A DNA stretch of 64,000 nucleotides, from sequence record EF437941; one strand, written 5' to 3'. The DNA comes from Escherichia phage Phi1. The notes beneath the pieces were generated by a model, which ran no database searches, had not been told where the DNA came from, and worked only from the letters and a program-made list of their open reading frames with translations. This document shows, one piece after another, positions 20,157 to 63,526 of this stretch (positions are counted from its first letter, which is position 1; each line of letters opens with the position of its first letter). The position numbers were made by a program, and so were the translations under genes.

Positions 20157-20191
20157 GGGTGTATTATGATATACACCCTCTGTTATGTCAA
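20157..20191 (-). promoter_or_regulatory. PeSL-type early promoter cassette (stem-loop plus -35 TTGACA)
   Basis: Plus tgtcaa at 20186-20191 (minus TTGACA); palindrome gggtgtat-tatgat-atacaccc at 20157-20178; conserved leader gtttcggtatgggtgtattat and RBS before the ATG at 20126. Confidence 0.6.
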
Positions 20192-20198
20192 CAACTTT

Positions 20199-20378
20199 TT
20201 AGAACATTTTTGAAATTAATTTTGCTTTGATTTCGCAGAGAACACCTAAAGATTTCTCGTCACCCGCTTTTGCTGCTTCTGATTGCATTTTTGAAATGGC
20301 TTCAATGTCAGTGCAATTATAAGCCGCTTGAACTTTAGCGATTGCGATGATTGCCGATTCGATGGTTAAGTGTTTCAT
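20199..20378 (-). CDS. hypothetical small protein (59 aa)
   Basis: ATG 20376-20378 preceded by GGAGAATCAAAC leader; translation MKHLTIESAIIAIAKVQAAYNCTDIEAISKMQSEAAKAGDEKSLGVLCEIKAKLISKMF. Confidence 0.45.
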   Translation of the reverse strand: MKHLTIESAIIAIAKVQAAYNCTDIEAISKMQSEAAKAGDEKSLGVLCEIKAKLISKMF

Positions 20379-20415
20379 GTTTGATTCTCCTTTCGTTTCG
20401 GTATGTGTGTATTAT

Positions 20416-20440
20416 GGGGGATCACCGATCCCCCTGTCAA
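20416..20440 (-). promoter_or_regulatory. PeSL-type early promoter cassette
   Basis: Palindrome gggggatcaccgatcccc (20416-20434) abutting plus tgtcaa 20435-20440; conserved leader downstream. Confidence 0.6.
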
Positions 20441-20447
20441 CAACTTT

Positions 20448-21002
20448 TTAGTTATTTTTTAATTGCTCATCTTGCAATAGGGAAATCACATGCTGGCGAT
20501 GTTCTTCCGATTGAGGGACACCGAAAAAGTTTGTTTTGTAGAAATACTCTAATCGGTCTTCTCGTGTGCTCTCTTCCATCATGATCGCGGGTAGTCCGAG
20601 ATTTCGGAAACGTCGCTTTTCTGCTGGCGTAAAATCACTGTAATACAGCATAGAATCATCGTTACCAGCAATGCTAAACTCATCATTCATGAAGGAGAAT
20701 ATTGCGTTTAAACGCTGTTTACCGTCCACGATTTCGATCTCATAGCGAGAGCCATCATCAATCTTAGCCATTGCGATAGCACCAACCGGAAAATCATTAA
20801 TCAGGTTTTCGATAAACATACGTTTGTTTTCGGTGTCCCATACCAAAGGACGCTGATAATCTGGGTTCATGTTGATATAGCCATCTTCTAACCACGCCTC
20901 ATAAACAGAGATGACAAAGTTTTTAGTATTGGTATAGTAACGGCGTTTAGGCGTTAAACGGTTCATGTTATAGTCTCCTGAATGGATCATCACGTAAATC
21001 AA
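20448..21002 (-). CDS. DUF262 (ParB-like nuclease/NTPase domain) protein
   Basis: Motifs NPDYQRPLVWD and VDGKQRLNAIFSF match the DUF262 signature (FQR..W ... DGQQR). Confidence 0.65.
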   Translation of the reverse strand: MIYVMIHSGDYNMNRLTPKRRYYTNTKNFVISVYEAWLEDGYINMNPDYQRPLVWDTENKRMFIENLINDFPVGAIAMAKIDDGSRYEIEIVDGKQRLNAIFSFMNDEFSIAGNDDSMLYYSDFTPAEKRRFRNLGLPAIMMEESTREDRLEYFYKTNFFGVPQSEEHRQHVISLLQDEQLKNN

Positions 21003-21300
21003 TATCTTTTAAGAACTCATCCCATGAATGGCGGATATTGTTCTTAATTCTCCAGATAAGCGCAGGGATTGAACGCTCTCCCATCTGGAAGTAAGGATCA
21101 TATGATCCGTATGCCCAATATGCTACTACAATTCCACAATCAGCGCAATAATATTCTATTTCACTTGCTGGCGACCAAAGTCCATCAATATGATCGGTGA
21201 TCCTGCTTTCGATGTTATGGCTATGGCAATCAGGGCAACGGATGCAATGACCTTGTTTATCGTAATTTGACGTTAGCGAATACTTAAACAATCTCATCAT
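20968..21300 (-). CDS. zinc-ribbon protein (CxxC...CxxC)
   Basis: CIRCPDCHSH ... YYCADCG Cys pairs; overlaps neighbouring genes at both ends (coupled operon). Confidence 0.5.
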   Translation of the reverse strand: MMRLFKYSLTSNYDKQGHCIRCPDCHSHNIESRITDHIDGLWSPASEIEYYCADCGIVVAYWAYGSYDPYFQMGERSIPALIWRIKNNIRHSWDEFLKDIDLRDDPFRRL

Positions 21301-22013
21301 AGATCCTTATTGGCTTCAAATACTGCCTTTGCGAATCCTCGCGGGGTAAGTGACCTGATAGTCTTTGTTCTGGTTCCTTTCCCGCCTAGCTTAGAATGCT
21401 GTTTACTGTACCCTTTATTAATATGCAACGGTTTCTTTTCTGGCATTATAAAGCCTTGTCCGGTCCATAAGCAAGTCTTTTTCGGGTACATATCACGGGC
21501 GGCAATATACTCAGGAAACGTAGGATGTTTATCATCTTCCGGCAAATAACCGCCATATTCCCACGGATGGAACATGTAATCAGGCTTACGCCACATACTA
21601 GAGATAACGCTTACAGGATTCTCTATCATGTAGGGAACTCCTAGCCATTCACCCAAATAAGCGGTTATTTTAGCTGCCCGTACATCATGAACTTGAATCA
21701 ATGGTCCTTGTTCTCGTTTCTTTCGTTCAAAGTGTGCAGCGCCACTAACAGCTAAATTGGTGCACGGTGGGAATGCAAATATAATATCCGGTTTCCCCCA
21801 TTCAAGGTCCATTGCTCTTTCCAGCCAGTTCAAATCAATCCAGGTGTTTACATAAGTAATGTTTGGATGTTCAAATCTGGTATTATACTTTTTGTATGTA
21901 CCGTGGTCGGCGTCATCCGCATTAAAGCAGACTACCTTATGACCTGCTTTAGCCCATTCTAGCCCCATTATCCCCGATCCGTCAAAGTTGCAGAATATTA
22001 ATTTTTGTTTCAT
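21297..22013 (-). CDS. short C5-cytosine methyltransferase-like protein (putative)
   Basis: FCNFDGSGIMG (motif I-like FxGxG), IIFAFPPCTNLAVSGA (motif IV-like PC catalytic dipeptide), MIENPV (motif VI-like ENV). At 238 aa it is too short to hold a full target-recognition domain. Confidence 0.45.
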   Translation of the reverse strand: MKQKLIFCNFDGSGIMGLEWAKAGHKVVCFNADDADHGTYKKYNTRFEHPNITYVNTWIDLNWLERAMDLEWGKPDIIFAFPPCTNLAVSGAAHFERKKREQGPLIQVHDVRAAKITAYLGEWLGVPYMIENPVSVISSMWRKPDYMFHPWEYGGYLPEDDKHPTFPEYIAARDMYPKKTCLWTGQGFIMPEKKPLHINKGYSKQHSKLGGKGTRTKTIRSLTPRGFAKAVFEANKDL

Positions 22014-22255
22014 ATACGACCCTTTAACCCAGCACAGATTTTAGTCGGTTCTTTACCGTGCCACATTAAGTAAAGTCCGTTAATGCGACCTTGTTTTGTG
22101 TGTGATTCTTTTCTGATCTTCTTATAGTGTCGTGCTTCCTCAACTGATTGTTTAGAATACCAATCATAAAGGAAGAGGCACAAAGGCCAACCATTAGCGG
22201 CCTTAATGCAGTTATTAAGAAATTCCTTATTGCGTTTAATTAATTTTCTTTTCAC
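22010..22255 (-). CDS. hypothetical basic protein (81 aa)
   Basis: ORF translationally coupled to neighbours (4-nt overlaps). Confidence 0.5.
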   Translation of the reverse strand: MKRKLIKRNKEFLNNCIKAANGWPLCLFLYDWYSKQSVEEARHYKKIRKESHTKQGRINGLYLMWHGKEPTKICAGLKGRI

Positions 22256-22503
22256 GCTGCCCCCATTGGTTTGATAGTAACAGAATCTAAAAGACCTTTG
22301 TTAGCCAGTTCGCGGCAAGTTTTCAGATCCGTAACTTCCCAGCCAGCCGCAATCAGGTTATCGATGAGGCTGTTAGCTACTTCCTCGCTCATGAAAGAGC
22401 ACTGTTTGCCGATGGTGTAGCGCACACGATGTAATTTCAGTTTACGGAAGCCTTTAACGTTCAGGTCTTTAGCGATTTTCTTTGCGGTTTCGATGTTAGC
22501 CAT
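22252..22503 (-). CDS. hypothetical protein (83 aa), first gene of the operon
   Basis: Preceded by PeSL leader GGAGAATCAAACA and a promoter cassette. Confidence 0.55.
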   Translation of the reverse strand: MANIETAKKIAKDLNVKGFRKLKLHRVRYTIGKQCSFMSEEVANSLIDNLIAAGWEVTDLKTCRELANKGLLDSVTIKPMGAA

Positions 22504-22550
22504 TGTTTGATTCTCCTAAGTGGTATCTCGTTTCGATGGTTGTATTGTAG

Positions 22551-22573
22551 GGGGAGTTATCCTCCCCTGTCAA
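22551..22573 (-). promoter_or_regulatory. PeSL-type early promoter cassette
   Basis: Hairpin ggggag-ttatc-ctcccc (22551-22567) abutting plus tgtcaa 22568-22573. Confidence 0.55.
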
Positions 22574-22587
22574 CACTTTTTATAAAA

Positions 22588-22755
22588 TTATTTGTTAATT
22601 TCTGGTGCGTTGCTAGGATAGTAACCTTCTTTAACTCCGAGGTATTTCGCAACCATCCCTACAATCTTCTGTGCTACTACAATGTCAAATTTCAGATAAT
22701 CTTCGCCGTGGGTTTCAATGATATATGCTTCACATGCTGCTTTAGTCTCGAACAT
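22588..22755 (-). CDS. hypothetical small protein (55 aa), duplicated gene copy 1
   Basis: MFETKAACEAYIIETHGEDYLKFDIVVAQKIVGMVAKYLGVKEGYYPSNAPEINK; about 90% aa identity to CDS 25863..26030. Confidence 0.55.
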   Translation of the reverse strand: MFETKAACEAYIIETHGEDYLKFDIVVAQKIVGMVAKYLGVKEGYYPSNAPEINK

Positions 22756-22794
22756 TTTGATTCTCCTATTTCGTTTCGGTATGTGTGTAGTATA

Positions 22795-22817
22795 GGGGAT
22801 CTCCCGACCCCCGTCAA
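22795..22817 (-). promoter_or_regulatory. PeSL-type early promoter cassette (imperfect hairpin)
   Basis: ggggatctcccgacccc (one substitution from the palindrome at 27233) followed by plus cgtcaa (minus TTGACG). Confidence 0.5.
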
Positions 22818-22831
22818 CAACTTTTTTAAAA

Positions 22832-23113
22832 TTATTCGTGATTAGTTTCGATGTTGTGCATTTTGCACCAGTTCAACCAATCACCCATATCTTGATAGTT
22901 GATGCTTTTATCTGCTGCCATCGTTTTTGTCTTGATACCCATATGTGCGTTATGAGTAAGCATTTTTACAGTGAACTCAATTTTATCGCCTTTAGCTTTA
23001 ACATCAACCAGTTTGGTCCACTGGCTACCAGCGCCGCGAATGTTCATACCAACGATGTTTCCGATGTATGCTTCTTTGTTTTTCAGGATTTCGGTTGCTT
23101 TGATGAATTTCAT
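22832..23113 (-). CDS. hypothetical protein (93 aa)
   Basis: ORF with conserved PeSL leader upstream. Confidence 0.55.
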   Translation of the reverse strand: MKFIKATEILKNKEAYIGNIVGMNIRGAGSQWTKLVDVKAKGDKIEFTVKMLTHNAHMGIKTKTMAADKSINYQDMGDWLNWCKMHNIETNHE

Positions 23114-23170
23114 TTTTGATTCTCCAGTTCGTTTCGGTATGGGTGTATTATGCTATGTTCTTACTTTGGT

Positions 23171-23176
23171 GTCAAC
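23171..23176 (-). promoter_or_regulatory. early promoter -35 element with conserved leader, no clear stem-loop
   Basis: Plus gtcaac (minus GTTGAC) with leader gtttcggtatgggtgtattat and RBS before the ATG at 23113. Confidence 0.4.
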
Positions 23177-23183
23177 AACTTTT

Positions 23184-23453
23184 TTAGATATTTTCAGAAA
23201 TAAATTTTAAAACTTGACGTAAATGTTTCTCATCTTTGATAGTCGCCGGAAGTTCTTCTTTTACTTCCTGTGCAAGATAGATATTTCCGTTCCAAGTGAA
23301 AGATCCGTCTTTGTTTACGCGATAGCTGAACATCCACTCGCAATCATTTTCGATTTCATATACACACAGAAGGGTGTAATCGTTAAAGCTATTGATTTCA
23401 AGGTCGAAGCCGTGACGTTTTGCAAAGTTGGTAGTGGTTTTAGTCAGTGCCAT
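23184..23453 (-). CDS. hypothetical protein (89 aa)
   Basis: ORF with conserved leader upstream. Confidence 0.55.
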   Translation of the reverse strand: MALTKTTTNFAKRHGFDLEINSFNDYTLLCVYEIENDCEWMFSYRVNKDGSFTWNGNIYLAQEVKEELPATIKDEKHLRQVLKFISENI

Positions 23454-23516
23454 TGTTTGATTCTCCTAAGTGGTATCTCGTTTCGATGGGTGTATTATGC
23501 TATAGGTCGGATCTGG

Positions 23517-23522
23517 TGTCAA
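23517..23522 (-). promoter_or_regulatory. early promoter -35 element with conserved leader
   Basis: Plus tgtcaa (minus TTGACA) preceded on the minus strand by an A-tract; conserved leader follows. Confidence 0.4.
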
Positions 23523-23552
23523 TTCTTTTTTTAAAATTTTATGCAATAAAAA

Positions 23553-23572
23553 AGCCGACGCTAAGGTCGGCT
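23553..23572 (-). terminator. Rho-independent terminator (minus strand)
   Basis: Stem AGCCGAC / GTCGGCT with loop gctaag; minus-strand U-tract (plus A-run 23546-23552). Confidence 0.55.
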
Positions 23573-23579
23573 AATAAAA

Positions 23580-23888
23580 TCATTTAGACAAATAATCATT
23601 CAGTGCAATCCGGTCGGCGTATGCTGGTGTTACGTCAATCGCAATCACTTTAACGCGTGCTTTCTTGCGACCTGGGTTTTCACGTAACCAGTGCTCATGA
23701 CCGTGAACATTTTTATACTGCGATGCTTCTTCGAAGGTACGGATCGGACCTGGGTAATCAGCGTAAAGGATCTCTAGATCTTCGGTGATGTAAAAATATA
23801 CATCATAATTACTGTTCTCTAGTTTAAGCAGAGACTTTCGGAACATTGGGAGATTTTCGCGGGTAAATTCAAAGATATTATCTTTCAT
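23580..23888 (-). CDS. HxHW-motif small protein, paralog family member 1 of 6
   Basis: YDVYFYITEDLEILYADY...HGHEHWLRENPG...VKVIAIDVTPAYADRI; shares the family pattern with five other ORFs. Confidence 0.6.
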   Translation of the reverse strand: MKDNIFEFTRENLPMFRKSLLKLENSNYDVYFYITEDLEILYADYPGPIRTFEEASQYKNVHGHEHWLRENPGRKKARVKVIAIDVTPAYADRIALNDYLSK

Positions 23889-23916
23889 AGTATTATCCTC
23901 AATAGTTGGATGAGAA

Positions 23917-23932
23917 GGGGCGTTAACGCCCC
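23917..23932 (-). terminator. GC hairpin, possible terminator or RNA-stabilising 3' structure
   Basis: GGGGCG-ttaa-CGCCCC; flanking U-tract is weak. Confidence 0.3.
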
Positions 23933-23938
23933 CATATA

Positions 23939-24226
23939 TTAAAACAGTCCTTCATGTACACCGTAGTAGAGTTCGTCGCTGATAATTTCATTAATGCGAC
24001 GGTGTGCATATTCCTGATTTGCGAAGTTGTCAGCAAGTTCTACTTTAGTTTCGCCGTCATGAGTCCATTTAGTGATAACTTTACCATCTGCAAATTTGAA
24101 GTTGAACTCTTTAGCTACTGCATCGCGTACCAGACGTGCAAACTTATTGTTGCGGATTGCATTGTCGGTTTCGTGTGAAGCGTGAGCAAATTTGTTAACT
24201 TTCAGAGTGATAGTGATGTATGCCAT
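23939..24226 (-). CDS. hypothetical protein (95 aa)
   Basis: ORF with PeSL leader; weak similarity to CDS 27265..27576 (shared AKEFN motif). Confidence 0.55.
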   Translation of the reverse strand: MAYITITLKVNKFAHASHETDNAIRNNKFARLVRDAVAKEFNFKFADGKVITKWTHDGETKVELADNFANQEYAHRRINEIISDELYYGVHEGLF

Positions 24227-24266
24227 AATTTGATTCTCCTAGTTAGAAAGTGTATCTCGTTTTGAT

Positions 24267-24301
24267 GGGGATATTATGCTATATCCCCGATCCGGTGTCA
24301 A
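24267..24301 (-). promoter_or_regulatory. PeSL-type early promoter cassette
   Basis: Palindrome ggggatat-tatgct-atatcccc (24267-24288), which contains the -10 CATAAT on the minus strand; plus tgtcaa at 24296-24301 with 17-nt spacer. Confidence 0.6.
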
Positions 24302-24307
24302 CACTTT

Positions 24308-24586
24308 TTATAAAATAATTTTTTGATATTTTTCTATGATGTTCGTGTAAGTCACATCAACCGCTAGCACCGTTGCTTCGAATCCACCGTTTAGCCAATG
24401 GCTATGATCATGGTCGTGAAAGAAACCTAGACCAGTACGAAGACCTTCTTTATATTCTGCGCGTACATTCAGTTTGTCGTCGATAAACAGATAAAACCAT
24501 GAATTTTTACTAGGATTGATGATACAACCTTTCAGATTAGGGAGAATATCACGACTAAGAATAAACTTATCACCTACTTTGAACAT
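24308..24586 (-). CDS. HxHW-motif small protein, paralog family member 2 of 6
   Basis: SWFYLFIDDKLNVRAEY...HDHDHSHWLNGGFEATVLAVDVT; start taken at ATG 24584-24586, which has a GAGGA RBS. Confidence 0.6.
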   Translation of the reverse strand: MFKVGDKFILSRDILPNLKGCIINPSKNSWFYLFIDDKLNVRAEYKEGLRTGLGFFHDHDHSHWLNGGFEATVLAVDVTYTNIIEKYQKIIL

Positions 24587-24590
24587 AATA

Positions 24591-24911
24591 TTAGTCCTCA
24601 CTTATAAGGTCAAACCAATTGTTTTTCGCATAATGCTTAATGCGTGCTTGATCTGCTTCCGCTGGTGATAGATTCCATGCAACCACTACAACTTCTGACG
24701 CATCGTCATCCGTTTCTGATACCCAATGATTGTGATTCATACAGTTATTTGCTATCGAGTGAGCAAATGATTTCATCACTGGAGACGTATAATCATAGTA
24801 ACGGATTTTCAGATTTTCATCAACATACAAATAGATCGTATAAGGTTTATATTCAGTAACCAGTAACAGACAGTTACGCAATTCTGGGAAAATCTTTTTA
24901 GTTAATTTCAT
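24591..24911 (-). CDS. HxHW-motif small protein, paralog family member 3 of 6
   Basis: YTIYLYVDENLKIRYYDY...NHNHWVSETDDDASEVVVVAWNLSPAEADQ. Confidence 0.6.
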   Translation of the reverse strand: MKLTKKIFPELRNCLLLVTEYKPYTIYLYVDENLKIRYYDYTSPVMKSFAHSIANNCMNHNHWVSETDDDASEVVVVAWNLSPAEADQARIKHYAKNNWFDLISED

Positions 24912-25113
24912 ATTCTAGTTCTCCGTAATACACGGTAATCCATTTTTCTTCATACTTTGTATCTTTCCAACACACAATACCGTTTACTGTGCAATCTTTG
25001 GAATTGACGAATGATTCATATTGTTCCGCATCTTCCATCATTTCATGAGCGGTCTTTTCATCGAATATATCGCAGATCGCTTTATATGCTCGATAATCTT
25101 TAAATTTGCTCAT
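24898..25113 (-). CDS. hypothetical small protein, tandem paralog A (MSKFKDY family)
   Basis: MSKFKDYRAYKAICDIFDEKTAHEMMEDAEQ... is paralogous to the adjacent 25116..25325 product (MSKFKDYKAYQQILRVYEPEFAEKMMEDAS). Confidence 0.55.
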   Translation of the reverse strand: MSKFKDYRAYKAICDIFDEKTAHEMMEDAEQYESFVNSKDCTVNGIVCWKDTKYEEKWITVYYGELEYEIN

Positions 25114-25115
25114 AA

Positions 25116-25325
25116 TTAACACCACTCAAGAGTTTTTGAAAACACATCTATCCATTGTTGAGTATATGCGGTTTCTTTCCATGATACAATACCAGTCGAA
25201 TAATGGTTTTTGTTTCCAGAAAAGGACGGGCATTTTGATGCATCTTCCATCATCTTTTCGGCGAACTCTGGTTCGTATACTCGCAAGATCTGTTGATATG
25301 CTTTATAATCTTTAAACTTACTCAT
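25116..25325 (-). CDS. hypothetical small protein, tandem paralog B (MSKFKDY family)
   Basis: See paralog A; start overlaps the upstream stop (ATGA). Confidence 0.55.
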   Translation of the reverse strand: MSKFKDYKAYQQILRVYEPEFAEKMMEDASKCPSFSGNKNHYSTGIVSWKETAYTQQWIDVFSKTLEWC

Positions 25326-25606
25326 AACAACACCACCGATACATCGTAATCATTCGCGGCCTTATCGGCTTCTTCAACCGACATAATACCTTCTGCGACA
25401 ATTGGCATAGGGTGATCGTGATTCCACCAATGGTCATGTATATCAATTTCAGTTTTGCCGGAAAATGAATCATGTTTGACGTTTTTCACTTTATACCCGA
25501 TGTGACCGTCGTGGTCAATAAAGATATAGTTTCCGAAAATCGGTGTCTGTAAAATCATACCGAAAAATTTTTCTTTGTTGTTCGGGTCGAGTGTAATCAT
25601 TTTCAT
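25322..25606 (-). CDS. HxHW-motif small protein, paralog family member 4 of 6
   Basis: NYIFIDHDGHIGYKV...IDIHDHWWNHDHPMPIVAEGIMSVEEADKA. Confidence 0.55.
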   Translation of the reverse strand: MKMITLDPNNKEKFFGMILQTPIFGNYIFIDHDGHIGYKVKNVKHDSFSGKTEIDIHDHWWNHDHPMPIVAEGIMSVEEADKAANDYDVSVVLL

Positions 25607-25619
25607 AATATATTCCTCT

Positions 25620-25799
25620 TAGAAAGGGATGGTCATTTCTTGAGCTTGTACATTCTCATTAGGATTAAACTTAATCCAACCGATATTGTCTACCAGCATA
25701 TGCACATTTTTATCATATCCTACGTGAGTAGTCAACACTAAATGTGATTTACCTTCAACGATGATTTCCATGTACTTCTGAACTTCGATAGCTTTCATT
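25620..25799 (-). CDS. hypothetical small protein (59 aa)
   Basis: ATG 25797-25799 preceded by GGAGAATCAAA leader; translation MKAIEVQKYMEIIVEGKSHLVLTTHVGYDKNVHMLVDNIGWIKFNPNENVQAQEMTIPF. Confidence 0.45.
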
Positions 25800-25825
25800 T
25801 TGATTCTCCGTTTGTTGTCTTGATG

Positions 25826-25860
25826 GGAGTATCTTACTACTCCCTTTAATCATTGTCAAC
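25826..25860 (-). promoter_or_regulatory. PeSL-type early promoter cassette
   Basis: Palindrome gggagta-tcttac-tactccc (25826-25845); plus tgtcaa at 25855-25860; minus-strand -10 TAAGAT sits in the loop. Confidence 0.55.
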
Positions 25861-25862
25861 TA

Positions 25863-26030
25863 TTATTTGTTAATTTCCGGTGCGTTGCTTGGATAGTAAC
25901 CTTCTTTAACACCCAGATATTTTGCAACCATTCCGGTGATCTTCTGTGCTACTACGATATCGAATTTCAGGTAGTCTTCACCGTGGGTTGCTACAAAGTA
26001 TGCTTCGCATTCTGCTTTAGTCTGGAACAT
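25863..26030 (-). CDS. hypothetical small protein (55 aa), duplicated gene copy 2
   Basis: MFQTKAECEAYFVATHGEDYLKFDIVVAQKITGMVAKYLGVKEGYYPSNAPEINK; the ORF-track entry 25863..26117 reads through the promoter, so the start is set at ATG 26028-26030. Confidence 0.55.
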   Translation of the reverse strand: MFQTKAECEAYFVATHGEDYLKFDIVVAQKITGMVAKYLGVKEGYYPSNAPEINK

Positions 26031-26069
26031 TTTGATTCTCCTATATCTCGTTGGTATGTGTGTAGTATA

Positions 26070-26092
26070 GGGGATCGGTGATCCCCTGTCAA
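26070..26092 (-). promoter_or_regulatory. PeSL-type early promoter cassette
   Basis: Minus strand reads TTGACA-ggggatcaccgatcccc-TATACT: the 17-nt palindrome forms the spacer exactly. Confidence 0.65.
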
Positions 26093-26100
26093 CAACTTTT

Positions 26101-26409
26101 TTATTCTTCATCTTCATTTTTATCTTTATATGCGTACTTCATAAATTTGTCTGCTACTTTGTCCGCGTTTTCAGGTTCTACGTCTGACGCTAGGACAACA
26201 GCTAGTTCGGTTTTGTCGTTTCCATCATACCAATGATTATGAGTGTCGTTTTCTTCGATATAAAACGAATCATTTGGAGTTGTGCGACAATATACGTCTA
26301 AATTCCCATCGATATAAAAGATCCAATCCGAATACAAAATGATTGCGTTAGCCAGATTTTTATTGTCTCTTACAAAAGGTTCCGCGACAAATAGCTTAGT
26401 TTGTTCCAT
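26101..26409 (-). CDS. HxHW-motif small protein, paralog family member 5 of 6
   Basis: DWIFYIDGNLDVYCRT...NDTHNHWYDGNDKTELAVVLASDVEPENADK; start at ATG 26407-26409 with GAGGAA RBS. Confidence 0.55.
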   Translation of the reverse strand: MEQTKLFVAEPFVRDNKNLANAIILYSDWIFYIDGNLDVYCRTTPNDSFYIEENDTHNHWYDGNDKTELAVVLASDVEPENADKVADKFMKYAYKDKNEDEE

Positions 26410-26425
26410 AATATTTTCCTCAAAA

Positions 26426-26617
26426 TTATACAGCTTCGTAAACTTCCCAATGTTCAGCGCCAACACGCTTAACGAAAAGGTTTTCTTTGATGTTATTCAT
26501 AAACGTCTGGATGGATTTAATGCGGTTGGAAGGTTTCCAGTCTTCGTTGGCATTGCGATGATACATAATAACATTACCAGTTCGCTTATATTCAGCAACC
26601 ATTTTAAGACCACACAT
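26426..26617 (-). CDS. hypothetical protein (63 aa)
   Basis: ORF with GAGGA RBS 8 nt upstream of the ATG. Confidence 0.45.
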   Translation of the reverse strand: MCGLKMVAEYKRTGNVIMYHRNANEDWKPSNRIKSIQTFMNNIKENLFVKRVGAEHWEVYEAV

Positions 26618-26674
26618 AATATTATCCTCAATTTGTGGGAGAGTATTACCCCTCCCAATGATTGTTATGTTATA

Positions 26675-26995
26675 TCACACAAAATGGCGTGTCAATGCTT
26701 CTTTTGCGGTTCCGCTAAGACTTTCGATCTCGCCTGGCATAACATCAACCGCCAGAACTTCTACAACATCCTCGGACCCTAACCAGTGAGTATGGCCTTT
26801 GTAGAACTTGATAACCAGACTACCTTCCTCATCCCATTTAACACTATCGCTAGCCCACCACACATCACCGTCGATAAAGTTGATGTAAAGCACACTACGC
26901 CACATTGAATTAATTACTTTCAATACTGCGCCTTTCATCTCTTCCACGGTATGGTCTTCCATTTTGAAGACCTCACCTACCTGAACTTTTGCCAT
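26675..26995 (-). CDS. HxHW-motif small protein, paralog family member 6 of 6
   Basis: SVLYINFIDGDVWWASD...YKGHTHWLGSEDVVEVLAVDVMPGEIESL. Confidence 0.6.
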   Translation of the reverse strand: MAKVQVGEVFKMEDHTVEEMKGAVLKVINSMWRSVLYINFIDGDVWWASDSVKWDEEGSLVIKFYKGHTHWLGSEDVVEVLAVDVMPGEIESLSGTAKEALTRHFV

Positions 26996-27012
26996 TTAGT
27001 CACCTCTCTTTA

Positions 27013-27192
27013 TTACATAACAATCACGCCAGCCGTTGAAAGTTGATGTTTCAACTGAGCATTTTCTGCTACCGTCAAATCAATGATTTCTTGTGACGCT
27101 GCAATCATATATCCATTGGTGATATTGTTTTGCATCAGTTCAATGGTTTCTTCGTTGTAGCGGATTTTAGCGATGATTTCGTTGAAGTTCAT
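27013..27192 (-). CDS. hypothetical small protein (59 aa)
   Basis: ATG 27190-27192 with GGAGAATCAATC leader; translation MNFNEIIAKIRYNEETIELMQNNITNGYMIAASQEIIDLTVAENAQLKHQLSTAGVIVM. Confidence 0.45.
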   Translation of the reverse strand: MNFNEIIAKIRYNEETIELMQNNITNGYMIAASQEIIDLTVAENAQLKHQLSTAGVIVM

Positions 27193-27232
27193 GATTGATT
27201 CTCCTAGTTCGTTTCGGTATGTGTGTATTATA

Positions 27233-27256
27233 GGGGATCTCCCGATCCCCTGTCAA
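27233..27256 (-). promoter_or_regulatory. PeSL-type early promoter cassette
   Basis: Palindrome ggggatc-tccc-gatcccc (27233-27250) abutting plus tgtcaa 27251-27256; -10 TATAAT on the minus strand. Confidence 0.65.
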
Positions 27257-27264
27257 CAACTTTT

Positions 27265-27576
27265 TTAAAGTTTTTCCATGATAACGGTCATAATTACATC
27301 TTCTGCGCGAGCGGTCAGATTATCAGCGTCAGCATGTGGGCGGTTGGTTGTTACAGAGATAACACCGTTGCGCACTGGTTTGATATTGATATCAAGATGA
27401 TCCGCGAAACGTTCGCCAGTTACAGAATGAATTTTGGTGTTAAATTCTTTTGCCAGTGCCTTGCGAACTTCACGAATCAGGGTAGCGTTTTTCAGTTGGT
27501 TCTCCGCGCTCATGGTCTTCTGGGTGTTCATGGTTCCGTCGAAGTCAATCATTGGCAGCGTTACGATGTATTTCAT
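27265..27576 (-). CDS. hypothetical protein (103 aa)
   Basis: ORF with PeSL leader. Confidence 0.55.
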   Translation of the reverse strand: MKYIVTLPMIDFDGTMNTQKTMSAENQLKNATLIREVRKALAKEFNTKIHSVTGERFADHLDINIKPVRNGVISVTTNRPHADADNLTARAEDVIMTVIMEKL

Positions 27577-27628
27577 TTTTGATTCTCCGTTTAAGAAAGT
27601 GTGTTTCGTTTTGATGTGTGTATTATAA

Positions 27629-27651
27629 GGGGATCACCGATCCCCTGTCAA
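27629..27651 (-). promoter_or_regulatory. PeSL-type early promoter cassette
   Basis: Palindrome ggggatcaccgatcccc (27629-27645) abutting plus tgtcaa 27646-27651. Confidence 0.65.
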
Positions 27652-27663
27652 CAACTTTTTGAA

Positions 27664-28140
27664 TTATTTTTCTTGATGCTCGCGCTCGTACTTTTCGAAA
27701 TAAAATTCTACTGGCTGATCGTGGATTGAAAGCAAGCCAAAGCGTTTAGCCGCTCGCAATCCCATATTGCGCTGAATGTACTTCTGGAAGTTCTCGCGTA
27801 TACACTTACGCCAGGATTCTAAGCCCATACAGCTTTTATAAAGATTGCATTGCACACACGCCGGATTCATGTTATCAAGTATATCATGCTCCGGTTTATG
27901 CATTCCTACAACCTTATACTTCCACGATCCATCATCATTACGAGCAATTCGTCCATTTTCATCATAGACTACCTTTGAGCGTCGTAATACTGGTTTGATG
28001 TGGTCTGCGTGCCAGCGATCCCCTAGTTCCTCGCCACAATAGGCACAACGTCCACCATATTTCATTTTCAGGATCTGGCGTTGCTCTTTCTTTGACAATT
28101 TTTTAGGTTTAGGGGCTTTCGCCCCTTCATTATCACACAT
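27664..28140 (-). CDS. HNH endonuclease (putative homing endonuclease)
   Basis: HNH signature CAYCGEEL...WHADHIKP...NMNPACVQCN; start overlaps the 3' end of the DNA ligase gene. Confidence 0.7.
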   Translation of the reverse strand: MCDNEGAKAPKPKKLSKKEQRQILKMKYGGRCAYCGEELGDRWHADHIKPVLRRSKVVYDENGRIARNDDGSWKYKVVGMHKPEHDILDNMNPACVQCNLYKSCMGLESWRKCIRENFQKYIQRNMGLRAAKRFGLLSIHDQPVEFYFEKYEREHQEK

Positions 28141-31018: not shown

Positions 31019-31511
31019 TACCCTTCAAATCAGTCAATAATTCTTTTGGAATACGAGTGATCGTAATATCTGCATTGTTCAGAATATCAGCCCAATCACG
31101 CCCACCATTTCGATCATATGTGTCGCAATAATATAGATGTTTAATTCCACTGTTTGCAATTGCTTTAGCGCAATCTGGACATGGTGAAGCAGTACACCAC
31201 ATACTAGCGCCTTCAATCGATACACCGCTACGGGCAGCAAACAAAATAGCATTTAATTCAGCGTGGATCTCGTTTTTCTGTGACCATGCACTATGCTCTG
31301 GTCGTTTTTCTGGGATCATTTTGCCTTCATCATCCAGCCAACCGCTTTTATGTGCATGACAGCTACAATTTACTTGCCCTGCTGGAGTGCCGTTAAATCC
31401 AGTAGAAATAATTCGCCCGTCTTTTTCGATTAGTGCTCCTACCTTCCACGAAACACATTTAGAGTTCTTTGCGATTAGATAGGCGATCTGCATGTAAGTT
31501 TGTGACAACAT
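31005..31511 (-). CDS. cd: dCMP deaminase
   Basis: Cytidine/dCMP deaminase zinc motifs HAELNAI and PCPDCAKAI. Confidence 0.85.
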   Translation of the reverse strand: MLSQTYMQIAYLIAKNSKCVSWKVGALIEKDGRIISTGFNGTPAGQVNCSCHAHKSGWLDDEGKMIPEKRPEHSAWSQKNEIHAELNAILFAARSGVSIEGASMWCTASPCPDCAKAIANSGIKHLYYCDTYDRNGGRDWADILNNADITITRIPKELLTDLKGIDND

Positions 31512-31532
31512 AATATAATCCTCACATATTAA

Positions 31533-35047: not shown

Positions 35048-35446
35048 TTAACTTTCCAGAATATCGCGAGCTTCGTTACGCTCCTTGATGATTTTCAGGA
35101 CAAATTCCAGTTTTTCTTTGTTCAGTGTTCCATTTTCCATCGCTTCTTTGACGGTAAACACCCCGCCACCTTGCCCGTATACAGTGACAGTGATTTCACC
35201 TAACATCGTGGTATGAAAACCGCCAATTTTCGGTGATTCGAAAGAAACAATTACCTCGCGGACAGTATTACCGTCGTTGATTTCTGAGAGGGTAATGTCG
35301 TTTTTGTAGGCGGTTGCTTTAACCATACGGATCAGCATAGTCTGATCTGGGGAGATGGTCATTTTGTCCATTGCATGTTGCAATGCAGCGTAACCGAAAA
35401 CTTTAACGAAGTCCAGAACGTCTTTGCGAGTTTGAAATTTAATCAT
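35048..35446 (-). CDS. hypothetical protein (132 aa)
   Basis: ORF with PeSL upstream. Confidence 0.55.
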   Translation of the reverse strand: MIKFQTRKDVLDFVKVFGYAALQHAMDKMTISPDQTMLIRMVKATAYKNDITLSEINDGNTVREVIVSFESPKIGGFHTTMLGEITVTVYGQGGGVFTVKEAMENGTLNKEKLEFVLKIIKERNEARDILES

Positions 35447-35473
35447 CTTGATACTCCTTAGTTGTTTTGGTAT

Positions 35474-35508
35474 GGGAGTATCTTACTACTCCCGTGATAT
35501 GCTGTCAA
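35474..35508 (-). promoter_or_regulatory. PeSL-type early promoter cassette
   Basis: Palindrome gggagta-tcttac-tactccc (35474-35493); plus tgtcaa at 35503-35508. Confidence 0.55.
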
Positions 35509-35516
35509 CTGCTTTT

Positions 35517-35666
35517 TTATGCAACCGCAAACATCAACATTTGAACATTCTTGGCTGTCTGGCTTTCAAAGTTCTGACATTCTTTGATAATGTCCTCTAC
35601 TTTCTCGCCGGAGATCTCCGCGTAAGTTTCGATTGCCATTTTCAGTACCGCGTCAAAGTTGTTCAT
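35517..35666 (-). CDS. hypothetical small protein (49 aa)
   Basis: ATG 35664-35666 with GGAGAATCAA leader; translation MNNFDAVLKMAIETYAEISGEKVEDIIKECQNFESQTAKNVQMLMFAVA. Confidence 0.4.
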   Translation of the reverse strand: MNNFDAVLKMAIETYAEISGEKVEDIIKECQNFESQTAKNVQMLMFAVA

Positions 35667-35698
35667 TTGATTCTCCTTAAAGTGTATTTCGTTTCGAT

Positions 35699-35733
35699 GG
35701 GGGTATATTAATACCCCCGTTATTCAGTGTCAA
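35699..35733 (-). promoter_or_regulatory. PeSL-type early promoter cassette
   Basis: Palindrome gggggtat-atta-ataccccc (35699-35718); plus tgtcaa at 35728-35733. Confidence 0.55.
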
Positions 35734-35952
35734 CTACTTTTTAATGACAAGTTCGAATTTTGCTACCTTGCGTCCGCGTTTATTGAAAGCAACCCACGGA
35801 CGGTTTTCAATGTAGAACAATTCTTCGCCAATAATGAATACTGGCTGATTGTAAAGTCGACCCATCAGGTCACGTTGACGAATAGTAGTAGATTCGTATA
35901 CTTCGCCCACTACAAAGTGTTTGTTGATAGAGTCGGTGCAAATAAATTTCAT
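35734..35952 (-). CDS. hypothetical protein (72 aa)
   Basis: ORF with PeSL leader. Confidence 0.5.
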   Translation of the reverse strand: MKFICTDSINKHFVVGEVYESTTIRQRDLMGRLYNQPVFIIGEELFYIENRPWVAFNKRGRKVAKFELVIKK

Positions 35953-35979
35953 TTTGATTCTCCTTTGTTTCGTTTCGAT

Positions 35980-36014
35980 GGGAGTATCTTACTACCCCCT
36001 TTATTCAGTGTCAA
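35980..36014 (-). promoter_or_regulatory. PeSL-type early promoter cassette (imperfect hairpin)
   Basis: gggagtatcttactaccccc (one mismatch in the stem); plus tgtcaa at 36009-36014. Confidence 0.5.
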
Positions 36015-36020
36015 CTACTT

Positions 36021-36239
36021 TTACTTGTTATATTCATTCCACCATTGGGTGAGCTTATCAATTATTTTTGTGTTTCTATCCAACTTCTCCCACCGTTTTC
36101 GAGGGTTTATCAACCGGAATAGGTAAGGTGTACTTGTTAAACTAACTCGGTCAAAGTAATATTTGATCAGTTGACATTCAATGATGAGTTTCATCTTTTT
36201 ACGATGAAAATATGCAATGACTTGTTCTTCTGTTTCCAT
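36021..36239 (-). CDS. hypothetical protein (72 aa)
   Basis: ORF with RBS and a -35 element upstream. Confidence 0.5.
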   Translation of the reverse strand: METEEQVIAYFHRKKMKLIIECQLIKYYFDRVSLTSTPYLFRLINPRKRWEKLDRNTKIIDKLTQWWNEYNK

Positions 36240-36285
36240 ATGTTCCTCCGTTTCGGATGTGTATTATGCTATGGCAAGATCCGAT

Positions 36286-36291
36286 TGTCAA
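36286..36291 (-). promoter_or_regulatory. early promoter -35 element (TTGACA), no stem-loop
   Basis: Plus tgtcaa with conserved leader tttcggatgtgtattat; sits immediately after a terminator. Confidence 0.4.
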
Positions 36292-36308
36292 CACCCAACA
36301 ACAAAAAA

Positions 36309-36328
36309 AGTCGCCACTATGGGCGACT
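36309..36328 (-). terminator. Rho-independent terminator (minus strand)
   Basis: Stem AGTCGCC / GGCGACT with loop actatg; 7-nt U-tract on the minus strand (plus A-run 36302-36308). Confidence 0.6.
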
Positions 36329-37973: not shown

Positions 37974-37988
37974 TAATTCACCTCACTA

Positions 37989-38496: not shown

Positions 38497-38533
38497 AATA
38501 AAATCCTCACTTGTTTTTGATGGTTGTATTATA

Positions 38534-38556
38534 GCGGGGATTTCTCCCCGCGTCAA
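38534..38556 (-). promoter_or_regulatory. PeSL-type early promoter cassette
   Basis: Minus strand reads TTGACG-cggggagaaatccccgc-TATAAT: 17-nt palindromic spacer, perfect -10. Confidence 0.6.
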
Positions 38557-42431: not shown

Positions 42432-42432
42432 G

Positions 42433-45881: not shown

Positions 45882-45935
45882 TATTCCTTCTTTTGATTAA
45901 TTTACTAGACTATTATACAGATTTAAATTTACTTG

Positions 45936-61338: not shown

Positions 61339-61530
61339 TCACTTATCGTTAAGAAGTTCTAAAACTTTCTGCCGTACTTTGTCAATATTAGTTGATTCAA
61401 AAACTGTACGGTATCCCCAACTTTGACCGTATGATCGCGAGCAATCCCCATATCCCCATTGTTCAACCTGATAGTATTCAAGGAATGGGTGCTGCCGAAC
61501 TATGATACCATCGCGATTAAAAATTACCAT
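61339..61530 (-). CDS. hypothetical protein (63 aa)
   Basis: ORF immediately downstream of the 3 x 27-bp tandem repeat, with GAGGA RBS. Confidence 0.5.
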   Translation of the reverse strand: MVIFNRDGIIVRQHPFLEYYQVEQWGYGDCSRSYGQSWGYRTVFESTNIDKVRQKVLELLNDK

Positions 61531-61544
61531 AATATAATCCTCAC

Positions 61545-61625
61545 GTCAACAACTTATTTTCGGTTGTACTTGTCAACAACTTATTTTCGGTTGTACTTGT
61601 CAACAACTTATTTTCGGTTGTACTT
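61545..61625. repeat. perfect tandem direct repeat, 3 x 27 bp (gtcaacaacttattttcggttgtactt)
   Basis: Three identical head-to-tail copies at 61545-61571, 61572-61598 and 61599-61625; each holds a minus-strand GTTGTTGAC -35-like element. Confidence 0.85.
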
Positions 61626-61889: not shown

Positions 61890-62690
61890 TTAACCCTTCT
61901 TATATTCGCAAACATATTGAGTACCATAATCATAGCTAATGCGACCTTTCTCGATTACTTCAAAGCGGATTTCATCGTTTTCCCCTACCCACATTTTGTA
62001 CTCGTTGAAGTATCCTGCTACATCCGGTTTGCTCATACCAACAACCATATTTTTATATTGTTTGCTGTGTGTCAGATTTGATTTAAACACTTCGCGCTCA
62101 TCAACATATACGAAAGAAGACAATTCACCTTCGGTCATGGTCATTTTCAGCTTGCCGCCCTTGTTGCCATAAGTAGAGTTGCCATACAATGGATCTTTGC
62201 GGCTGTCTGTTTCAATACCATCAATGATTTTCCATGTAAATTTTGCAATGCACTGATAAGTGATAGATCCAGAGATTTTCTCTTCTTTCTTCTGTTCTTC
62301 CACCACTTTTGCTTCGTGTTTCGGTTGTTCTTCTTCAACCTTCACAGAAGTCTCTGAATCGCTTTCTGACGCGGTTTCTTCTTTAGGTAATACATTCATC
62401 AAGTTTTGGATTTGAGCGTTGTATACAGCCTCCAGTGGCTGAATCTGCCCGATATTGATCATTGTATCACGAACAGTTTTATTCCAGTTGCGTTGCTCTT
62501 GTTTAAGAGACGGATCAATCTTAACAGCCTTAACATATACCTCATGAAGTTTAGAATCAAGTGCTGAGATTGACTCATTAGCACAAATAAACTTCTCTGA
62601 TTTGGTAGTAGCTTTAGCGCAATCAAAGGACGCAGCATTAGCACCGAAAGTAGTAGCAGAAAGAACGATAGCAGCGATAATGTTTTTCAT
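61890..62690 (-). CDS. secreted protein with LprI/DUF1311-like N-terminal domain (putative)
   Basis: Signal peptide MKNIIAAIVLSATTFGANA; then FDCAKATTKSEKFICANESISALDSKLHEVYVKAV...QRNW resembling the DUF1311 two-Cys motif; acidic linker; C-terminal beta-rich domain. Confidence 0.5.
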   Translation of the reverse strand: MKNIIAAIVLSATTFGANAASFDCAKATTKSEKFICANESISALDSKLHEVYVKAVKIDPSLKQEQRNWNKTVRDTMINIGQIQPLEAVYNAQIQNLMNVLPKEETASESDSETSVKVEEEQPKHEAKVVEEQKKEEKISGSITYQCIAKFTWKIIDGIETDSRKDPLYGNSTYGNKGGKLKMTMTEGELSSFVYVDEREVFKSNLTHSKQYKNMVVGMSKPDVAGYFNEYKMWVGENDEIRFEVIEKGRISYDYGTQYVCEYKKG

Positions 62691-62720
62691 AATATATATT
62701 CCTCAGTGTTTTGTCTTGAT

Positions 62721-62755
62721 GAGAGTATCTTACTACTCCCTTAATCCGGTGTCAA
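62721..62755 (-). promoter_or_regulatory. PeSL-type early promoter cassette (imperfect hairpin)
   Basis: gagagtatcttactactccc (one mismatch in the stem); plus tgtcaa at 62750-62755. Confidence 0.5.
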
Positions 62756-62762
62756 CCACTTT

Positions 62763-62918
62763 TTAAATTTCTTCTACAGTAAAGTCTTCAATGTTGTTGT
62801 GCTCGGCGAACGTTGCTAGACCAGCATCCCATGCATCATCCTCAGAGAAGAATACACCGTAACGTTCATATCCTTTAGCGCCTTCAAATTTAACCATTAA
62901 TTTGTGAGTATGTTTCAT
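62763..62918 (-). CDS. hypothetical small protein (51 aa)
   Basis: Start at ATG 62916-62918 with AGGAGAATCAAA leader; the ORF-track entry 62763..62978 reads through the promoter. Confidence 0.5.
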   Translation of the reverse strand: MKHTHKLMVKFEGAKGYERYGVFFSEDDAWDAGLATFAEHNNIEDFTVEEI

Positions 62919-62955
62919 TTTGATTCTCCTTCGTTGTCTTGATGAGTTTAGTATA

Positions 62956-62978
62956 GGGGATCGCCGATCCCCTGTCAA
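62956..62978 (-). promoter_or_regulatory. PeSL-type early promoter cassette
   Basis: Palindrome ggggatcgccgatcccc (62956-62972) abutting plus tgtcaa 62973-62978. Confidence 0.65.
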
Positions 62979-62989
62979 CTATTTTTAAA

Positions 62990-63250
62990 CTATTTTCGCC
63001 ATTCACCGGAAACGATGAAGTTTGTAAAGTGATTGTGGTCCGTGATAATGTCATTAAGTACCATATGCGGATATGCTTTAGTGTAATCACGTTTACGATC
63101 AGTCATCCAGCCAACGAAAGTCGGTGCAAAGTACGGCACACCGTCAGACGATGCCATATTAAACCCTTTATCAGCCATAAATGCAGCCGCCCTAAGATTT
63201 TTAATTGAAGTAGTGCGACTAATTTCAAAAACTTTATCGGTAAAATTCAT
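62990..63250 (-). CDS. hypothetical protein (about 86 aa)
   Basis: Start taken at ATG 63248-63250, just after the stop of the upstream gene. Confidence 0.45.
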   Translation of the reverse strand: MNFTDKVFEISRTTSIKNLRAAAFMADKGFNMASSDGVPYFAPTFVGWMTDRKRDYTKAYPHMVLNDIITDHNHFTNFIVSGEWRK

Positions 63251-63251
63251 T

Positions 63252-63464
63252 TTAATAAGCCCCCACTCGTGCATTAATGCGCATTTTCTGCATAGCCATG
63301 ATCTGGTTTACTGCTTCTTCTTTGCGTTTTTGCGTGATAACGTGACCAGATTCCGCAAACTCTCCCGCAACTTCTTCTACGATCTCGCGAACTTGAGAAC
63401 GTCCAAAGATGCGGTTTCCTTCGTAGCTCATAAATTCAGTCACTACTTGCTCAATAGATTTCAT
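63252..63464 (-). CDS. hypothetical protein (70 aa)
   Basis: ORF with GGAGAATCACA leader and a PeSL upstream. Confidence 0.5.
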   Translation of the reverse strand: MKSIEQVVTEFMSYEGNRIFGRSQVREIVEEVAGEFAESGHVITQKRKEEAVNQIMAMQKMRINARVGAY

Positions 63465-63491
63465 GTGATTCTCCTTCTTTCGTTTCGGTGT

Positions 63492-63526
63492 GGGAGTATG
63501 TTAATACTCCCATTTCTTTACGTCAA
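63492..63526 (-). promoter_or_regulatory. PeSL-type early promoter cassette
   Basis: Palindrome gggagtat-gtta-atactccc (63492-63511); plus cgtcaa at 63521-63526. Confidence 0.55.

Follow-up and report, generated by a model that had tools for sequence, protein, structure and literature searches.

PeSL elements (promoter-early stem-loops) were described in the coliphages RB49 and phi1 by Arbiol, Comeau, Kutateladze, Adamia and Krisch (2010, Genome Biol Evol; PMC2839356). Here we characterize the corresponding cassettes in a 64,000-nucleotide (nt) stretch of Escherichia phage Phi1 (record EF437941), referred to as the window. According to the 2010 report, a PeSL consists of a near-perfect sigma-70 promoter with an AT-rich upstream tract and a polyG/polyC stem-loop, followed by a Shine-Dalgarno (SD) sequence and the start codon of an ORFan. 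There are 51-52 PeSLs per genome, clustered in hyperplastic regions, and the stem-loop takes one of five positions: within the spacer, over the -10, over the -35, upstream, or just downstream of the -10. The same paper reports ~13000 Miller units of lacZ from the PeSL206/205 promoter; cloned wild-type PeSL promoters were so strong that most recovered clones were mutated. In a plasmid reporter the PeSL211/210 stem-loop lowered downstream lacZ as strongly as rrnB T1, and recombination between neighbouring PeSLs gave mini-circles, shown for ORF192 and ORF210 (PMC2839356).

PeSLs were later extended to the T4/PST and KVP40/nt-1 pairs (Comeau, Arbiol and Krisch 2014; PMC4122927). As described in that paper, these share the composite of promoter and stem-loop and its association with variable genes, but differ in using T4-type early consensus sequences (TTTACW.., TTGYVH..), in their AT-richer stems (A3-4G3..C3T3-4, AGNA..TCNT) and in that some are built on MotA-type middle promoters. 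PeSLs are a published mechanism by which small accessory genes, perhaps host-range and anti-defence genes among them, can be shuffled in T4-type phages without losing their expression or their transcriptional insulation.

The window belongs to a Krischvirus, an RB49-like T4-type coliphage. In megablast comparisons with public phage records, positions 20000-28000 were 98.8% identical to GEC-3S over 100% of the query and 93-95% identical to ~20 other RB49-like phages; positions 37000-45000 matched RB49, JSE, ECD7 and other Krischvirus genomes at 94-97% identity. A first-pass annotation made from the letters alone had noticed repeated promoter, stem-loop and leader cassettes here and had likened them to the PeSLs of RB49-like phages. 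The comparison was right: all sequence-level features that define PeSLs were found, and it is near certain that the cassettes are PeSL elements. As in RB49 and phi1, a TTGACA-N17/18-TATAAT promoter follows an AT-rich tract in which the preceding gene has its stop codon; a Gn-loop-Cn stem-loop occupies the spacer, covers the -10 or precedes the -35; an SD and the start codon of a small ORFan come next; and the cassettes cluster in hyperplastic regions and bound indels. The window differs from RB49 in having neither ORF192 nor ORF211 and in carrying its own hairpin variants at several slots, and otherwise in nothing substantial.

The cassettes were therefore already known, and partly tested, in 2010, and their recognition here is a correct rediscovery rather than a new finding; the GEC-3S record likewise already annotates sigma-70 -35/-10 promoters at the sites of the window cassettes. 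PeSLs in a further Krischvirus genome add nothing conceptually. What is added concerns the hairpin: its exclusion from the transcript of its own promoter, its lack of a U-tract, the origin of one hairpin class from the promoter discriminator, wholesale hairpin swaps and loop flips. A literature search found no follow-up on the mechanism of the stem-loop, one stem-loop having been assayed there.

Anatomy of the cassettes and pairing of their hairpins

Cassettes were sought on the minus strand as a TTGACA-like box, 16-19 nt, a TATAAT-like box and then SD and ATG, and every cassette was collected from the homologous regions of 13 related genomes. Below, cassettes are named by the first base of their -35 box. 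Between 20157, the first hairpin base of the first cassette, and 63526, the first -35 base of the last, the two limits set by the first-pass annotation, we found 22 minus-strand cassettes. A GC-rich hairpin lies inside the promoter in 16 of them, two others (23522 and 36291) have a hairpin and T-run immediately upstream of the -35, and four (23175, 43418, 44844 and 45939) have none. The earlier estimate of at least 17 copies was therefore sound. Its distinction between hairpins that are the spacer and hairpins that enclose the -10 also held: eight cassettes fall into the first class (class S) and eight into the second (class T). Motif counts exceeded expectation, with CATACCGAAACGA occurring five times exactly and once with 1 mismatch on the minus strand (10 matches at ≤2 mismatches against 1.8 expected), AGTTGTTGACA eight times exactly (50 matches at ≤2 mismatches against 24) and GGAGAATCAA 19 times at ≤1 mismatch against 5.7.

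The cassette region begins with the gene that follows alt, takes in DNA ligase, the nrd/td/frd genes and gene 32, reaches rnh and resumes past the plus-strand tail-fibre genes in the small open reading frames (ORFs) before gene 52. Eleven cassettes lie in the 8-kb alt-ligase block, four in denA-nrdB and three after the holin gene. The genes downstream of cassettes are annotated as hypothetical. By the GEC-3S annotation the range holds ~74 minus-strand genes to 22 cassettes, and the densest block 25 genes to 11. Most of the cassettes stand at the head of an operon of 1-6 genes, and the earlier description of a cassette before nearly every small early gene was overstated.

Each cassette follows the order A-tract, (AG)TTG-TTGACA, 16-18 nt spacer, -10, C-rich discriminator, A start, A/C-rich leader, GGAG and ATG. 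The -35 has the extended form (G)TTGTTGACA, and the two hexamers match consensus at 10-12 of 12 positions at all 22 minus-strand sites. In cassettes with the conserved leader, A+T makes up 60-88% of the upstream 25 nt, which often read TAAAAAGTTG with the stop codon of the preceding gene inside; the tract upstream of 36291, 38556 and 45939 is 56-68% A+T. The predicted +1, seven bases past the -10, is an A in all 16 intra-promoter hairpin cassettes. From there to the ATG the leader measures 25-40 nt and ends GGAG(A/T)ATCAA..ATG, the GGAG of the SD being nearly invariant. Nolan et al. (2006; PMC1524935) report agreement between the predicted early-promoter consensus for RB49, in which positions -3 to -1 are C, and that of Desplats et al.

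The stems are 6-9 base pairs (bp) long with 3-6 G-C pairs, and in the 16 intra-promoter cassettes the hairpin is always inside the promoter and never in the leader. Relative to +1, hairpin 3' ends fall at -12 to -14 in class S and at -1, once +1, in class T. The hairpin is therefore outside the transcript of its own promoter and would be present only in read-through RNA arriving from upstream. In class T the 3' arm is formed by the last T of the -10 together with the C-rich discriminator. Since this discriminator, CATAATACACCC, is also found in two cassettes without an intra-promoter hairpin (23175 and 23522), class T hairpins can arise when the free spacer becomes complementary to promoter-constrained sequence.

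Folded as RNA, the 16 hairpin cassettes gave minimum free energies of -11 to -19 kcal/mol and z scores of -0.8 to -6.0 against dinucleotide shuffles; the four cassettes lacking a hairpin gave z scores of +0.15 to +1.0. The window and the 13 relatives together contain 12 distinct stem types, each with at least 6 contiguous pairs (for example GGGGATC/GATCCCC, GGGGAG/CTCCCC, GCGGGGA/TCCCCGC, GGGAGTA/TACTCCC, GGGGGTA/TACCCCC, GGGTGTAT/ATACACCC and GGGGATAT/ATATCCCC). When 3' arms were permuted among the types, a mean of 2.3 types retained at least 6 pairs and 12 was reached in 0 of 20000 permutations, which argues that the hairpin is kept rather than one particular sequence. This test replaced a MAFFT alignment of 34 distinct spacer-class hairpins that was structurally incoherent, with gaps at the ends and not in the loops.

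The first-pass annotation had ascribed the variation among palindromes to compensatory change and taken it as a sign of selection on the hairpin. All six palindromes it listed are present, although five had been written as their plus-strand reverse complements despite being described as minus-strand. Pairing in all 12 stems bears out selection on the hairpin, but strict covariation is small and most of the variation is wholesale hairpin replacement. Within the GGGAGTAGTAAGATACTCCC-type subclass of class T (22 distinct sequences), one of seven pairs covaries (AU 17, GU 2, GC 3), along a path AU / GU / GC; 96% of cells in this subclass are paired, compared with 43-73% when the partner is slid. 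A single covarying pair amounts to little classical compensatory evolution within a lineage and weakens that claim.

Stem imperfections of the transition type always gave G.U on the sense strand (5 cells from ~4 independent events); A.C was not seen. Small as the numbers are, this asymmetry hints weakly at an RNA-level or sense-strand constraint. Three pattern scans of IMG/VR yielded few Krischvirus contigs and matched unrelated phages instead, leaving the tally of G.U to A.C at ~4 to 0. Stem mismatches other than G.U, ~6-7 in number and each confined to a single genome, are without exception G:C-to-T:A transversions (G.A from C to A on the 3' arm, T.C from G to T on the 5' arm); mutational bias is one possible cause, and sequencing error in GC runs another. 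Across the whole window, Rfam gave no match at gathering score to any curated RNA family.

Hairpin replacement and gene shuffling

Related genomes were also compared slot by slot, a slot being anchored on its downstream gene. At orthologous slots the hairpin is mostly replaced as a unit by the hairpin of another cassette. This is expected from recombination between cassettes and not from stepwise compensatory mutation. Slot 27256 carries five different hairpins in seven sequence variants among 14 genomes, among them GGGGATC-GGGA-GATCCCC, a GGGGATC- stem with an ACC, GGT or GCC loop, and GGGGAGG-TTAAA-CTCCCC. At slot 24301, GGGGATAT..ATATCCCC alternates with the GGGTGTAT..ATACACCC found in orthologues, and the adjacent spacer changes as well. 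Hairpin type thus varies freely at a given slot while the downstream gene is unchanged.

A finer change affects the loop. At four slots a 3-nt loop alternates with its exact reverse complement in otherwise identical flanks, GGT with ACC at 26092, 27651 and 27256 and GGC with GCC at 62978. Either inversion across the palindrome or short-patch conversion from one cassette to another could account for these flips. The accessible portions of PMC2839356 and PMC4122927 make no mention of loop flips (a term search in the case of Arbiol et al. 2010), of the missing U-tracts, of the exclusion of the hairpin from its own transcript or of a spacer complementing the constrained -10/discriminator.

When an 8.4-kb block was aligned against the 13 relatives, 25 of 42 indel-breakpoint ends fell in cassette spans, which occupy 14.6% of the block (binomial p = 2.6e-11), a test in which events shared between genomes are counted repeatedly; with shared breakpoints grouped by us, five of nine distinct events lie at cassettes. 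Several of these indels can be followed gene by gene. The ORF at 20199-20378 is absent from KFS-EC, pEJ01, PHB13 and OZ035808, and its deletion leaves a chimeric cassette composed of the hairpin half of 20440 and the leader half of 20191. RB49 ORF192 is an insertion at cassette 22817 and RB49 ORF211 an insertion at cassette 27651. The gene at 27265-27576, between cassettes 27651 and 27256, is RB49 ORF210 of the mini-circle experiment, and SFHK24 and AV108 have no ORF210 homologue between these two cassettes.

This arrangement resembles lambdoid morons and integron gene cassettes, in which small accessory genes with their own expression signals are gathered in permissive regions. The flanks of morons, however, are not conserved linkers, and integrons require an integrase and attC sites, whereas PeSL mobility is ascribed to homologous recombination between regulatory cassettes. 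We know of no dedicated recombinase for PeSL mobility.

Function of the nested hairpin

We consider it very probable that the cassettes work as the PeSL account proposes, as a sigma-70 early promoter with a nested hairpin acting on upstream transcripts and a recombination linker. The near-consensus promoter would be an early promoter for host sigma-70, with transcription predicted to start at the A seven bases after the -10, and the transcript would run through a short unstructured A/C-rich leader to the GGAG Shine-Dalgarno and the ATG. The nested GC-rich 6-9 bp hairpin would be transcribed only by polymerases arriving from the upstream unit. In that RNA it would most likely be a terminator or attenuator, possibly a 3'-end cap, and would keep neighbouring early transcription units insulated from each other. 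With ~80-100 bp in common, the dozens of copies would also serve as dispersed homology for the phage recombination system, and recombination between them would delete, insert or swap the flanked small genes and the hairpins themselves.

From this analysis the account draws on the anatomy, the folding excess, the pairing over 12 stem types, the position of the hairpin outside its own transcript and the breakpoints inside cassettes. Published orthologous cassettes, assigned through the RB49 annotation and gene anchoring, contribute promoter strength, one spacer-class terminator test, mini-circles and mapped 5' ends. Desplats et al. are said to have mapped 5' ends in RB49 in 2002.

The specific claim that the hairpin is a read-through barrier in RNA is one we favour with some reserve, since the published assay covered a single class S stem-loop and all the intra-promoter hairpins lack a U-tract. 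The first-pass annotation had judged the role of the hairpin not evident from sequence, and the literature supplies part of the answer, in that the orthologue of 27651 cuts downstream lacZ like rrnB T1 (PMC2839356). The cassette hairpins resemble intrinsic terminators in being short, GC-rich and part of the nascent RNA from the upstream unit; they differ in the U-tract, a defining element of such terminators, which is present only at the hairpin 23572-23553, at that upstream of 36291 and at 17776. We infer that class T hairpins, which have no U-tract, would also stop or attenuate read-through.

Several observations weigh against this account. A U-tract follows none of the 16 intra-promoter hairpins, the next 8 nt holding 2-3 T in class S and 0-1 in class T, and a simple terminator scan of the sense strand in the dense block called only 23572-23553 among the cassette-associated hairpins. 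Terminator activity comes from one spacer-class stem-loop in a plasmid reporter (PMC2839356), and the activity and transcript evidence as a whole is drawn from orthologous cassettes and not from those of the window. Four cassettes have no hairpin at all, so that the hairpin is dispensable for the promoter. Single unpaired stem positions (G.A, T.C) occur in several relatives, and purifying selection is thus not absolute. Finally, the reverse-complement loop flips seem to point to events at the DNA level. Two questions follow: how a U-tract-free hairpin inside a promoter would block read-through, and whether the palindrome itself promotes recombination.

One answer, which we put forward tentatively, is that the intra-promoter hairpins, class T above all, may be something other than classical terminators and would act at two levels: in RNA, as a sense-strand stem that tolerates G.U wobble alone and caps or attenuates read-through with no U-tract, and in DNA, as a dynamic palindrome whose flipping loops and exchanged stems would seed recombination among early genes. 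A role centred on DNA seems unlikely. There the hairpin would act as a cruciform, a replication-fork hairpin or a protein site, with starting recombination between cassettes as its main role and any effect on read-through secondary. Loops replaced by their exact reverse complement at slots with identical flanks would be the signature of inversion across a palindrome, but they could also come by short-patch conversion from a cassette that already has the other loop. Hairpins swapped between slots as units, breakpoints within cassettes and the absence of U-tracts from intra-promoter hairpins would also fit; yet generic homology of 80-100 bp is already enough for T4-type recombination, as stated in PMC2839356. 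Arbiol et al. raise there a recombination protein that binds GGGG..CCCC, whereas twelve different stem sequences argue against one sequence-specific protein. Moreover, a G.U pair on the sense strand is an A.C mismatch on the other cruciform strand and yet is kept in several genomes, and stems of 6-9 bp extrude poorly.

We give little credence to the hairpin as an RNA 3'-end protector or processing barrier. Read-through RNA would be cut downstream, for example at the GGAG of the following SD by a RegB-type nuclease or by RNase E, and trimmed to the stem, which would stabilize the upstream message and uncouple the downstream one. Stems with no U-tract after them, the nearly invariant GGAG and the tolerance of G.U wobble alone among transition mismatches are what such a role would predict; RB49 encodes a RegB homologue, and in T4-related phages RegB cleaves early mRNAs at GGAG (PMC3014915). 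RegB cleavage of the cassette leaders is nevertheless putative, and a protector fails to explain the drop in reporter expression to the strength of rrnB T1 (PMC2839356).

Very unlikely, in our view, is that the hairpin tunes its own promoter, its self-complementary GC-rich region altering melting or supercoiling sensitivity and so setting the strength or timing of the unit. The hairpin does always lie within the promoter and never in the leader, the class T 3' arm is itself the last T of the -10 plus the discriminator, and wild-type PeSL promoter clones are so strong that they were mostly recovered mutated (PMC2839356). Against this, the same -35, -10 and discriminator occur at 23175 and 23522 without an intra-promoter hairpin; in other cassettes the hairpin precedes the -35 and is followed by a T-run like any ordinary terminator, which suggests a function linked to upstream transcription; and one slot can carry various hairpin types in front of an unchanged gene.

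Three simpler ideas were rejected: RNase III processing, since this enzyme needs much longer duplexes than stems of 6-9 bp; a single sequence-specific DNA-binding site, since 12 different stems occur; and Dam methylation as the purpose of GATC-containing stems, since other stem types have no GATC. The commonest stem, GGGGATC..GATCCCC, does contain two GATC (Dam) sites (class S, e.g. 26069-26087, 27628-27646 and 20416-20434), and the same hyperplastic block includes a gene for a DNA methyltransferase (21297-22013). This proximity is probably incidental.

Individual cassettes, related loci and other repeats

All cassettes below are on the minus strand. Among class S cassettes, that at 20376-20455 (-35 at 20440, ATG at 20378) has hairpin GGGGGATCGGTGATCCCCC at 20416-20434, and that at 22501-22588 (-35 at 22573, ATG at 22503, z -4.4) has hairpin GGGGAGGATAACTCCCC at 22551-22567; both coincide with GEC-3S promoter annotations. 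The cassette at 22753-22832 has a TTGACG -35 at 22817, a hairpin with one G.U pair at 22795-22812 and its ATG at 22755. Two class S cassettes are orthologues of the PeSLs assayed in RB49: PeSL206/205 corresponds to 26028-26107 (-35 at 26092, ATG at 26030), where the hairpin at 26069-26087 fills the 17-nt spacer, and PeSL211/210 to 27574-27666 (-35 at 27651, hairpin 27628-27646, ATG at 27576). Between these lies the cassette at 27190-27271 (-35 at 27256, hairpin 27232-27251, ATG at 27192). The cassette at 38494-38571, between nrdA and small ORFs, has a TTGACG -35 at 38556, hairpin GCGGGGAGAAATCCCCGC at 38534-38551 and its ATG at 38496, with a z score of -6.0. The last of the class, at 62916-62993 (-35 at 62978, ATG at 62918), has its hairpin at 62955-62973 with a GGC loop, which is GCC in one relative.

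Class T begins with the cassette at 20124-20206 (-35 20191-20186, hairpin 20157-20178, ATG at 20126, z -3.0), which is also annotated as a promoter in GEC-3S. It is followed by the cassettes at 24224-24316 (-35 at 24301, hairpin GGGGATATAGCATAATATCCCC at 24267-24288, ATG at 24226) and 25796-25874 (-35 at 25859, hairpin GGGAGTAGTAAGATACTCCC at 25825-25844, ATG at 25798, z -4.5). Three stand close together, at 35444-35523 (-35 at 35508, hairpin 35474-35493, ATG at 35446, z -3.6), at 35664-35748 (-35 at 35733, hairpin GGGGGTATTAATATACCCCC at 35699-35718, ATG at 35666) and at 35950-36029 (-35 at 36014, hairpin with one G.U pair at 35980-35999, ATG at 35952). The remaining two are at 62688-62770 (-35 at 62755, hairpin 62721-62740 with one G.U pair, ATG at 62690) and at 63462-63541, where a TTGACG -35 at 63526 accompanies a 9-bp hairpin at 63491-63512 and an ATG at 63464 (z -3.2).

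The two cassettes with an upstream terminator span 23451-23572 (-35 at 23522, hairpin and T-run 23572-23553, ATG at 23453), where GEC-3S carries both terminator and promoter features, and 36237-36325 (-35 at 36291, ATG at 36239), where the hairpin and T-run AAAGTCGCC..GGCGACTTTTTTT lie just upstream. Of those lacking a hairpin, the cassette at 23111-23190 (-35 at 23175, ATG at 23113, z +0.15) has the same promoter and leader as the others. Two early promoters have a 16-nt spacer, one at 43357-43433 without a hairpin (-35 at 43418, ATG at 43359, z +0.8) and one at 44787-44859 without a GC hairpin (-35 at 44844, z +0.7). The early promoter upstream of gene 32, at 45873-45954 (-35 at 45939, z +1.0), has no hairpin either and appears in the RB49 record as 'early RB49 promoter'.

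Further minus-strand cassettes lie outside the range surveyed at first pass. At 17713-17790 a TTGACT -35 at 17776 is followed by hairpin AAACGGGGACTAG..CTAGCCCCGTTT, which encloses the -10 and precedes TTTT, and the ATG is at 17715. Others are at ~4289, ~3717 and ~3134; those at 4289 and 3134 have a hairpin and T-run directly upstream of the -35.

Exact matches to GTTGACA-N17/18-TATAATACACACAT occurred in at least 120 stretches of IMG/VR environmental viral contigs of 4-286 kb, with a median GC of 47% among the matches listed. Downstream of TATAATACACACAT these listed matches, of which one contig frequently holds several, have a CA-rich leader and a GGAGCA Shine-Dalgarno but no GGGG..CCCC hairpin. 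The matches indicate that the design of promoter, discriminator and leader extends far beyond Krischvirus. In IMG/VR contigs without the Krischvirus leader, some of 357-366 kb, GC hairpins also lie between TTGACA and TATA. Thirteen such loci were recorded with a search pattern that imposed only the outer GGGG/CCCC, and their spacer hairpins include GGGGGCA-TAA-TGCCCCC, GGGGAGA-GAT-TCTCCCC, GGGGGCT-TCC-AGCCCCC and GGGGAT-GAACA-ATCCCC.

A different repeat lies at 61545-61625 on the minus strand, a perfect 27-bp tandem triplication of AGTACAACCGAAAATAAGTTGTTGAC (3.0 copies, 100% identical). It spans the last codons and stop codon of the upstream gene and a GTTGTTGAC -35-like box, which has no -10 at the right distance. 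The unit is single-copy in GEC-3S, RB49, JSE and OZ035808, and the triplication is either a recent duplication or an assembly artefact.

A second translation-initiation motif, GAGGAnTnTATTATG, had seven minus-strand matches against 0.16 expected, at 25604-25618, 26407-26421, 26615-26629, 31509-31523, 38494-38508, 43357-43371 and 61528-61542. It is located at the starts of genes lacking the GGAGAATCAAA-ATG leader, some of them within operons and some after a cassette.

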